Shown: piece after piece, positions 15,001-18,000 of the stretch
How the letters are laid out: each line of letters opens with the position of its first letter
Numbering within the stretch: the stretch's first letter is position 1
Made by a program: the position numbers
Source: Escherichia coli O127:H6 str. E2348/69
Lineage (GTDB): Bacteria; Pseudomonadota; Gammaproteobacteria; Enterobacterales; Enterobacteriaceae
Reading direction: 5' to 3' (one strand)
NCBI RefSeq assembly: GCF_000026545.1
Contig: NC_011601.1
DNA: 64,000 nt

Positions 15001-18000
15001 TGGGTGTGGCTTCAGCCTTGCCGCTGTGGAGCCGCGCAGTATTTGCGGCGGAGCGTCCAACGTTACCAATCCCTGATTTGCTCACGACCGATGCCCGTAA
15101 TCGCATTCAGTTAACTATTGGCGCAGGTCAGTCCACCTTTGGCGGGAAAACCGCAACTACCTGGGGCTATAACGGCAATCTGCTGGGGCCGGCGGTGAAA
15201 TTACAGCGCGGCAAAGCGGTAACGGTTGATATCTACAACCAACTGACGGAAGAGACGACGTTGCACTGGCACGGGCTGGAAGTACCGGGTGAAGTGGACG
15301 GCGGCCCGCAGGGAATTATTCCGTCAGGTGGCAAGCGCTCGGTGACGTTGAACGTTGATCAACCTGCCGCTACCTGCTGGTTCCATCCACATCAACATGG
15401 CAAGACCGGGCGACAGGTGGCGATGGGGCTGGCTGGTTTGGTGGTGATTGAAGATGACGAGATCCTGAAATTAATGCTGCCAAAACAGTGGGGTATTGAT
15501 GATGTCCCGGTGATTGTTCAGGATAAAAAATTTAACGCTGACGGGCAGATTGATTATCAACTGGATGTGATGACCGCCGCTGTGGGTTGGTTTGGCGATA
15601 CGTTGCTGACCAACGGTGCAATCTACCCGCAACACGCTGCCCCGCGTGGCTGGCTGCGCCTGCGTTTGCTCAATGGCTGTAATGCCCGCTCGCTCAATTT
15701 CGCCACCAGCGACAATCGCCCGCTTTATGTGATTGCCAGCGACGGCGGTCTGCTACCTGAACCGGTGAAGGTGAACGAGCTGCCAGTGCTGATGGGCGAG
15801 CGTTTTGAAGTGCTGGTGGAGGTTAACGACAACAAACCCTTTGACCTGGTGACGCTGCCGGTCAGCCAGATGGGGATGGCGATTGCGCCGTTTGACAAGC
15901 CGCATCCGGTAATGCGGATTCAGCCGATTGCCATTAGTGCCTCTGGTGCTTTGCCAGACACATTAAGTAGCCAGCCTGCGTTACCTTCGCTGGAAGGGCT
16001 GACGGTACGCAAGCTGCAACTTTCTATGGACCCAATGCTCGATATGATGGGGATGCAGATGCTGATGGAGAAATATGGCGATCAGGCGATGGCCGGGATG
16101 GATCACAGCCAGATGATGGGCCATATGGGGCACGGCAATATGAATCATATGAACCACAGCGGGAAGTTTGATTTCCACCATGCCAACAAAATCAACGGTC
16201 AGGCGTTTGATATGAATAAGCCGATGTTTGCGGCGGCGAAAGGGCAGTACGAACGTTGGGTTATCTCTGGCGTGGGCGACATGATGCTGCATCCGTTCCA
16301 TATCCACGGTACGCAGTTCCGTATCTTGTCAGAAAATGGCAAACCGCCAGCGACGCATCGCGCAGGCTGGAAAGATACCGTTAAGGTAGAAGGTAATGTC
16401 AGCGAAGTGCTGGTGAAGTTTAATCACGATGCACCGAAAGAACATGCTTATATGGCGCACTGCCATCTGCTGGAGCATGAAGATACGGGGATGATGTTAG
16501 GGTTTACGGTATAAAAAGACCGTATTCGGAAATATGCCCGGATCTCTCCGGGCATTATGGTTACTTCACATCATCCGGCAGCGCATAAGCCACAATATAG
16601 TCGCCCATCTTCGTACCAAATGAACCGTGACCGCCTGCGGAGATCACCACATACTGCTTGCCATTCACTTCATAGGTCATTGGCGTAGCCTGACCACCCG
16701 CTGGTAAACGACCCTGCCACAGTTTTTCACCGTTGCTCATGTTGTAAGCGCGCAGGTAGTTATCTGCCGTAGCGGCGATAAACAGCACGTTACCCGCCGT
16801 GGAGATTGGCCCGCCAAGCATCGGCATACCCATATTGAACGGCACCGGTACAGGCATCGGGAATGGCATACTGTCCTGTGGCGTACCAATACGTTTCTTC
16901 CACACCACTTCATTGGTTTTCAGATCCAATGCTGAGATATAGCCCCATGCTGGCTGTTTACATGGCAGACCAAACGGTGAGAGGAACGGGTTGAGCGTGA
17001 CACCATACGGTACACCGTACTGCGGCTGGATGCCGGATTCCGTACCCGTGCCTTTGGCATCTTTCGGCTGTTCCATCGGGTTGCCTGGACCGCGTGGGAT
17101 CAGTTTCGAAACAAACGGCAGTGCCATTGGGTTGGCAATCGCCACTTCACGATTCGGATCAACGGAAATCCCGCCCCATTCGAACATCCCCAGGTTACCC
17201 GGGAAGACCAGCGTACCCTGTTCAGATGGCGGGGTGAAAATGCCTTCATAGCGCATCTGGTGGAACATCACGCGGCACACCAACTGGTCAAACATGGTGG
17301 CTCCCCACATATCCGCACCGCTCAAATCTTTCGTCGGACGGAAGCTCAGTTCAGAAAACGGTTGAGTAGGGGTAACGTAATCACCTTTCGCTGCGCCTTG
17401 CGGCACCGGTTTTTCCGGTGCCGGAACCACCAGTTCGCCATTACGACGATCGAGCACAAAAATGTTGCCGGTTTTCGCCGGAGCATAAATGACCGGCACT
17501 TTCTGACCATTAACGGTGATGTCCGCCAGCGTCGGCTGTGCCGGAAGATCCATATCCCACAGGTCGTGGTGAACGGTCTGGTAGCTCCACGCCAGTTTCC
17601 CGGTAGTGGCATTCAGCGCCAGAATCGAGCTGGCATAACGTTCCTGTTCCGGTGTGCGGTTACCACCCCAAATATCTGGCGTGGTGACGCCCATCGGCAG
17701 ATAGACCAGATCCAGCTTCGCGTCATAGGCCGCTGGTGCCCACGAGTTTGGTGAGTTAAAGGTAAAGGTGTGTTCGTCAGACGGGATCGCATTCGGATCT
17801 TTCGCGCCCGGATCAAAAGCCCACAGCAGCTCCCCGGTGTTGACATCAAAACCACGGATCACGCCAGACGTTTCGCGGGTTGAGAAGTTGTCGGTGACTG
17901 AACCGGCCATCACGATGGTTTTATCGGTGATAATCGGCGGCGAAGTCGGTTCATACAGACCCGGTTTGGTGTCCGGCATATTGCTTTGCAGATTGAGCAC

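Follow-up and report, generated by a model that had tools for sequence, protein, structure and literature searches.

The methionine-rich segment of a multicopper oxidase gene in Escherichia coli E2348/69 is the known Met-rich insert of CueO, and the open reading frame opposite it is a by-product of codon usage

Introduction

The stretch of 64,000 nucleotides of Escherichia coli O127:H6 str. E2348/69 analysed here (contig NC_011601.1; hereafter the window) carries a multicopper oxidase (MCO) gene in which one short segment of the protein is rich in methionine, and a long open reading frame (ORF) runs across the same segment on the opposite strand. This raises the question of what the Met-rich segment is and does, and whether the antisense ORF is a gene or a consequence of the codons that it mirrors. 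Work on the Met-rich domain of the multicopper oxidase CueO goes back to 2002 and includes crystallography, mutagenesis and electrochemistry. What exactly the domain contributes physiologically is still debated in the literature, and the window brings nothing new to that debate. In the periplasm, CueO converts Cu+ to Cu2+, with reduction of O2 at its trinuclear cluster (PMC11494321).

Results and discussion

The identity of the gene that holds the segment is beyond doubt (Table 1). Solved E. coli CueO chains, about 17 distinct sequences, match its product over residues 1-516 with E=0, and the NCBIfam equivalog model for multicopper oxidase CueO (NF008205) matches it at 975.1 bits against a cutoff of 525, covering protein residues 1-516 and positions 1-528 of the 529 in the profile. 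The DNA sequence agrees with the annotated cueO of E. coli O127:H6 E2348/69 at every position (100% identity). Translation starts at the ATG at 14964, in place of the upstream TTG at 14925 that had been given in the ORF list, and ends with the stop codon at 16512-16514. Pfam recognizes Cu-oxidase_3, Cu-oxidase and Cu-oxidase_2, which are the three cupredoxin domains, and all four His-rich copper motifs, including H499-C500-H501, are in place. The neighbouring genes, acnB-yacL-speD-speE-yacC upstream and gcd-hpt-can downstream, stand in the standard E. coli order. Membership in two related families was considered and rejected. Specifically, the PcoA/CopA model (TIGR01480, copper_res_A) reaches only 118.8 bits against a cutoff of 478.95, and the gene lies between yacC and gcd with no pcoB beside it. 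Similarly, the FtsP/SufI model (NF008135) reaches 296.8 bits against a cutoff of 581, and the copper ligands that are lost in the FtsP/SufI family are all kept in the window CueO.

Table 1. Coordinates (positions in the window) of features at the cueO locus and elsewhere, and copper ligand residues found in the window CueO.
Feature	Position	Strand	Remarks
tp2 sRNA (RF02030) match	900-1013	-	103 bits vs gathering score 50; upstream of aceE/lpd-acnB genes
Putative CueR (MerR-type) promoter of cueO	14888..14918	+	From sequence reading and inverted-repeat search
cueO CDS	14964..16514	+	516 codons plus stop; periplasmic multicopper (cuprous) oxidase CueO
Tat signal peptide, residues 1-28	14964..15047	+	Twin arginines R3 R4; mature PDB chains begin at query residue 29
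Antisense ORF	15981..16307	-	108 aa, GTG start; mirror frame of cueO codons 340-448; judged a non-coding artefact
Met/His/Gly-rich segment, residues 355-400	16026..16163	+	Contains Cu5 ligands M355 and D360, and the Cu6 and Cu7 ligands
Met-rich domain according to the full-deletion variant, residues 358-407	16035..16184	+	Boundaries P358-H407 from PMC11494321
HtrA 5' UTR RNA thermometer (RF02700) match	63604-63649	+	77 bits vs gathering score 52
T2/T3 ligands			H101, H103, H141, H143, H443, H446, H448, H499, H501
T1 ligands			C500, H505, M510
Cu5 ligands			M355, D360, D439, M441
Cu6 ligands			M358, M362
Cu7 ligands			M364, M368, M376

Export of the product to the periplasm is indicated by a Tat signal peptide with the twin arginines R3 and R4. 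The Tat profile TIGR01409 scores 17.2 against a cutoff of 16.7, the Pfam TAT_signal model (residues 1-20) scores 21.1 bits, just below its cutoff of 22.7, and the start of the mature solved chains at residue 29 fits a signal of 28 residues. The gene is part of the E. coli core, as cueO was found in 5,424 of 5,426 complete E. coli genomes. As a separate observation, in the RefSeq E. coli set 10 of the matches to cueO fall on records labelled plasmid, and PLSDB record CP054241.1 has a complete cueO at 193501-195048 (99.4% protein identity) on an 834-kb E. coli record that was deposited as a plasmid. Such records are probably pieces of chromosome with the wrong label, or else very large replicons of the chromid type.

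Among the closest known counterparts of the window protein is CueO of strain K-12 (YacK; PDB 1KV7, 1N68, 3OD3, 3NT0). Both proteins are 516 aa long, are encoded at the yacC-gcd locus and have identical copper ligands. The window allele differs by the substitutions P121S, S191N, S271N, L337Q, G399S and A464T, and the two genes show 51 differences in 1551 nt of DNA. Within the Met-rich segment 45 of the 46 residues are identical, with G399S as the sole difference. K-12 CueO has been shown experimentally to act as a cuprous oxidase and to contribute to copper tolerance (PMC11494321), and from this protein, with 6 of 516 residues different, both properties are predicted for the window allele.

The original prediction had placed a Met-rich peptide at 16020-16170 and had recognized it as the Met/His-rich region of CueO. 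Both points are borne out. Translation in frame 0 contains the predicted peptide exactly, as residues 355-400, with the interval 16020-16170 bracketing its codons (16026..16163) with 6-7 nt of slack on either side, and the segment is what the literature delimits as the Met-rich domain of CueO. Published CueO deletion variants remove residues 358-407 or 361-396 of this domain, and the crystallographic Cu5, Cu6 and Cu7 sites lie within or against it (PMC11494321). The composition of the segment is extreme for this gene. Its 46 residues include 14 Met, 7 Gly and 5 His, with only 15 Met among the other 470 residues of CueO, and given the Met frequency of the gene itself, the binomial probability of at least 14 Met is 1e-10. 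No other stretch of 46 aa in any of the six frames of the 64-kb window is as dense in Met, and the runner-up has 8. The description of the region as one of low complexity applies to the protein, where the segment has the lowest entropy of any 46-aa stretch of CueO (3.17 bits against a mean of 3.74, SD 0.20; rank 1 of 471), but not to the DNA, where Tandem Repeats Finder finds no repeat in 15900..16300. The Met-rich insert of CueO is a textbook feature, already known and ordinary for a core E. coli gene, and its worth here is solely that of a sanity check in which a scan correctly recognised a textbook Met-rich domain.

Compared with other multicopper oxidases the segment is an insert, as several results show. 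No Pfam domain model covers CueO residues 294-395, and alignments with related chains repeatedly break into two stretches around this part of the protein. This is observed with the 446-aa solved CueO chain 2yxv, where the first stretch ends at residue 356, with FtsP/SufI, where it ends at residue 339, and with other MCOs, where it mostly ends near residues 300-320. In a four-way alignment the MCO of Leuconostoc citreum pLCK2 is gapped across approximately residues 354-406 of the window CueO, so that the insert is absent from an MCO that is not CueO, and PcoA has a different and longer Met-rich stretch in the same topological position.

The relatives themselves differ in what they carry at this position. 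CueO of Hafnia alvei (HaCueO; match to the window CueO with E=1.9e-215) is an orthologue that has its Met-rich domain in the same position, with the same proposed role in recruiting chelated Cu+, and in which the domain is larger and contains more Met (PMC12041951). From names and lengths, HaCueO is probably PDB entry 8r4f and its Met-domain deletion variant 8r4h. PcoA and CopA are likewise MCOs of three domains that leave the cytoplasm by the Tat pathway, and they too carry a Met-rich region between domain 2 and the copper-binding domain at the C-terminus. However, PcoA shares only about 26-31% identity with the window CueO, is plasmid-borne and encoded together with pcoB, and has a Met-rich region (MDHSQMGGMD..., SMAGMDHSRMAGM...) that cannot be aligned to that of CueO beyond a MAGMDHS motif. 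The Leuconostoc citreum pLCK2 MCO, FtsP/SufI and CotA have the three-cupredoxin fold and the HxH, HxxHxH and HCH motifs in common with CueO, but these MCOs and laccases do not have the Met-rich segment at approximately residues 354-406. In place of the CueO-type insert the Leuconostoc MCO carries a Met-containing C-terminal extension; such an extension is described for laccases of lactic acid bacteria (PMC12723717).

The ligand residues listed in PMC11494321 were checked against the window CueO, and every published ligand of the T1 site, the trinuclear cluster, Cu5, Cu6 and Cu7 is present (Table 1). The window protein has the Met-rich insert over its T1 site together with all four residues that bind Cu5, two of them inside the segment and two, D439 and M441, beyond it.

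Conservation of the segment within the species is nearly complete. A 258-nt query across it was covered to at least 80% in 5,430 of 5,431 E. coli records, with 95-100% identity in all but three, and its length is constant, with no indels, in the same 5,430. Over the segment, eight alleles chosen to span the identity ranking can be aligned without gaps. All 14 Met are invariant among them, and the only amino-acid polymorphism is G399S, with Ser in three E2348/69-like alleles. Comparison of K-12 with E2348/69 shows 44 synonymous and 6 non-synonymous codon differences over the whole of cueO, of which three fall within the Met-rich segment, two of them synonymous and one, G399S, conservative. This excess of synonymous differences indicates purifying selection on the cueO sense frame. 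The single exceptional record, strain L37 (NZ_CP034589.1; cueO at 1434-2966 of the retrieved piece), matches the segment query with 87% identity over 39% of its length. It was rejected as a variant of the insert, given that the annotation lists its cueO as a pseudogene with a frameshift and an internal stop, and that many small indels and substitutions are scattered along the gene. The damage is most likely uncorrected long-read assembly error rather than real decay.

Taken together, we put the probability at roughly 97% that the segment is the Met-rich insert of Tat-exported CueO, which recruits Cu(I) to Cu5, and that the antisense ORF is a by-product without function. The mechanistic part of this reading is carried over from the literature on the K-12 protein, whose segment differs from that of the window allele at one residue (G399S). 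The insert consists of a helix followed by a flexible Met/His/Gly loop in domain 3, positioned over the type-1 copper site. Its many thioether side chains would bind Cu(I) transiently, strip it from strong chelators and pass it on to Cu5 (M355, D360, D439, M441). Electrons would then travel from Cu5 to the T1 copper and on to the trinuclear cluster, where O2 would be converted to water, and Cu+ would thereby become the less toxic Cu2+. As a lid, the insert may also restrict the access of bulky phenolic substrates to T1. In published experiments the domain is not needed for oxidation of free Cu+ nor, under the aerobic conditions tested, for copper resistance in vivo, but it confers several-fold higher activity when Cu+ is supplied from strong chelators, presumably via transient complexes with multiple Met residues (PMC11494321). 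Under the anaerobic conditions tested it is dispensable for copper resistance in vivo as well (PMC12510620).

A different emphasis would make the segment mainly a steric lid that keeps organic substrates off T1, with its richness in Met a secondary matter. A truncated CueO that lacks approximately residues 357-400 has been solved (2yxv, 446 aa), and Kataoka et al. (2007) reportedly found increased laccase-type activity for this variant. PMC11494321 also discusses how readily ABTS can reach T1 in the deletion variants. On the other hand, 14 invariant Met would not be required if the segment were no more than a lid, and HaCueO, which has more of them, is the better enzyme at oxidising chelated Cu+ (PMC12041951). 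We therefore consider it unlikely that shielding of T1 is the main role. Nevertheless, serving as a lid and recruiting Cu+ are compatible rather than exclusive roles of the same insert.

Less likely still is that the segment serves mainly as a static store or sponge for Cu(I), or that Cu6 and Cu7 act as catalytic Cu(I) sites, in place of transient feeding of Cu5. This is how the original prediction, which described the region as binding extra Cu(I), reads when taken literally. The description is correct crystallographically but incomplete, since according to recent work Cu6 and Cu7 are functionally negligible and the domain serves to recruit strongly chelated Cu+ to Cu5 (PMC11494321, PMC12041951). 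Crystals show Cu6 bound to M358 and M362 and Cu7 bound to M364, M368 and M376, an earlier report proposed these as active sites, and their role is disputed between laboratories (PMC11494321). All five of these Met residues are found in the window CueO. Yet mutants of Cu6, of Cu7 and of both sites (Cu6/7) retain cuprous oxidase activity and copper resistance in vivo, and only the double Cu5 mutant abolishes activity (PMC11494321). Furthermore, anaerobic resistance depends on catalytic activity and not on the copper-binding capacity of the domain (PMC12510620), which argues against a storage role.

Turning from the protein to the opposite strand, the antisense ORF at 15981..16307 exists as predicted, with a length of 108 aa and a GTG start. 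That the Met-rich region spawned it is correct only in part. The ORF is in phase 0 with the sense codons of cueO and hence lies in the mirror frame, where stops arise only opposite sense TTA, CTA and TCA, and only 11 of the 517 codons of cueO are of this kind. Its limits are set by the sense TTA of Leu340 and the sense TCA of Ser456, which leave 115 codons from stop to stop, and none of the 13 Leu and Ser codons between the two is stop-generating. The ORF is therefore the usual mirror-frame ORF between TTA340 and TCA456 and is not specific to the Met-rich region. The region does help to keep the frame open, because codons for Met, His, Gly, Asp, Asn and Gln cannot mirror to stops. When the codons of cueO were shuffled synonymously (n=2,000), the antisense strand stayed open for 108 aa or more in 89% of the shuffles and its longest open run was 145 aa on average, so that the observed ORF is unremarkable.

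It is hardly credible that this ORF is a real overlapping gene for a His-rich protein of 108 aa. What speaks for a gene is that 108 codons are open from the GTG, that the ORF is intact in five of the eight sampled E. coli alleles, and that the predicted product is rich in His, a property that reflects sense ATG mirroring to CAT. Against it, in addition to the equal or greater length of most shuffled mirror frames, is a synonymous change within the Met-rich segment, Leu367 CTG>CTA, which splits the ORF into 88 + 26 aa in the other three alleles (K-12, 118UI and Z1322). The fact that a change that is silent in cueO truncates the antisense ORF indicates that the variation tracks constraints of the sense frame. 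Moreover, the product has no Pfam or NCBIfam match, the ORF is absent from the RefSeq annotation, a consensus scan with spacers of 16-18 nt finds no sigma-70-like promoter on either strand of 14700..16700, and the 18 nt upstream of the antisense GTG (GATACGGAACTGCGTACC) contain no Shine-Dalgarno-like motif. We conclude that this ORF is no gene and results from codon usage; a long antisense ORF over a compositionally biased coding segment requires no biological explanation. Two further ideas, namely that the uninterrupted mirror-frame ORF of the E2348/69 type is translated at low level as a metal-binding His-rich peptide, or that G399S in the flexible loop alters Cu+ recruitment, find no backing in these results and have only the slightest chance of being correct.

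Finally, although the peptide of the segment is superficially repetitive, next to no probability attaches to the proposal that the stretch is an unstable DNA repeat made by slippage and variable in length between strains, as Tandem Repeats Finder run at a minimum score of 30 detects none in 15900..16300, the E. coli records and sampled alleles described above show no length variation, and the sole exception, L37, is a frameshifted pseudogene with indels along the whole gene.

The flanks of cueO are likewise those of the chromosomal cueO locus, with the gene order yacC-cueO-gcd and, at the level of sequence, a CueR-type promoter architecture. The putative promoter (Table 1) consists of a -35 element TTGACC (14888-14893), a spacer of 19 bp and a -10 element TATGCT (14913-14918), and it contains a perfect 7-nt inverted repeat, CCTTCCC-N5-GGGAAGG (14892-14898 / 14904-14910). 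From established knowledge of the cue regulon we take this dyad to be the putative CueR operator of cueO. The basis for the assignment to CueR is the cue regulon as reportedly described by Outten et al. (2000). The consensus promoter scan with spacers of 16-18 nt misses this promoter because the 19-bp spacer of the MerR type is too long for its model.

Downstream, the cueO-gcd spacer is 46 bp long in E2348/69 (16515-16560) as compared to 201 bp in K-12 (2050-2250 of the K-12 comparison piece). In E2348/69 it contains a hairpin with a 9-bp stem, ATGCCCGGA-TCTC-TCCGGGCAT, at 16534-16555. The K-12 spacer shares the first 43 bases and then has approximately 155 extra bases with REP-like palindromes (GCCTGATGCGCTACGCTTATCAGGCC; GCCGCATCCGGC). 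The strains differ in whether a REP element stands between these convergent genes. A scan of the whole window with Rfam at gathering thresholds found no RNA element near cueO and two matches elsewhere, tp2 and the HtrA thermometer (Table 1). The latter match points to a start of degP/htrA close to the right-hand end of the window.
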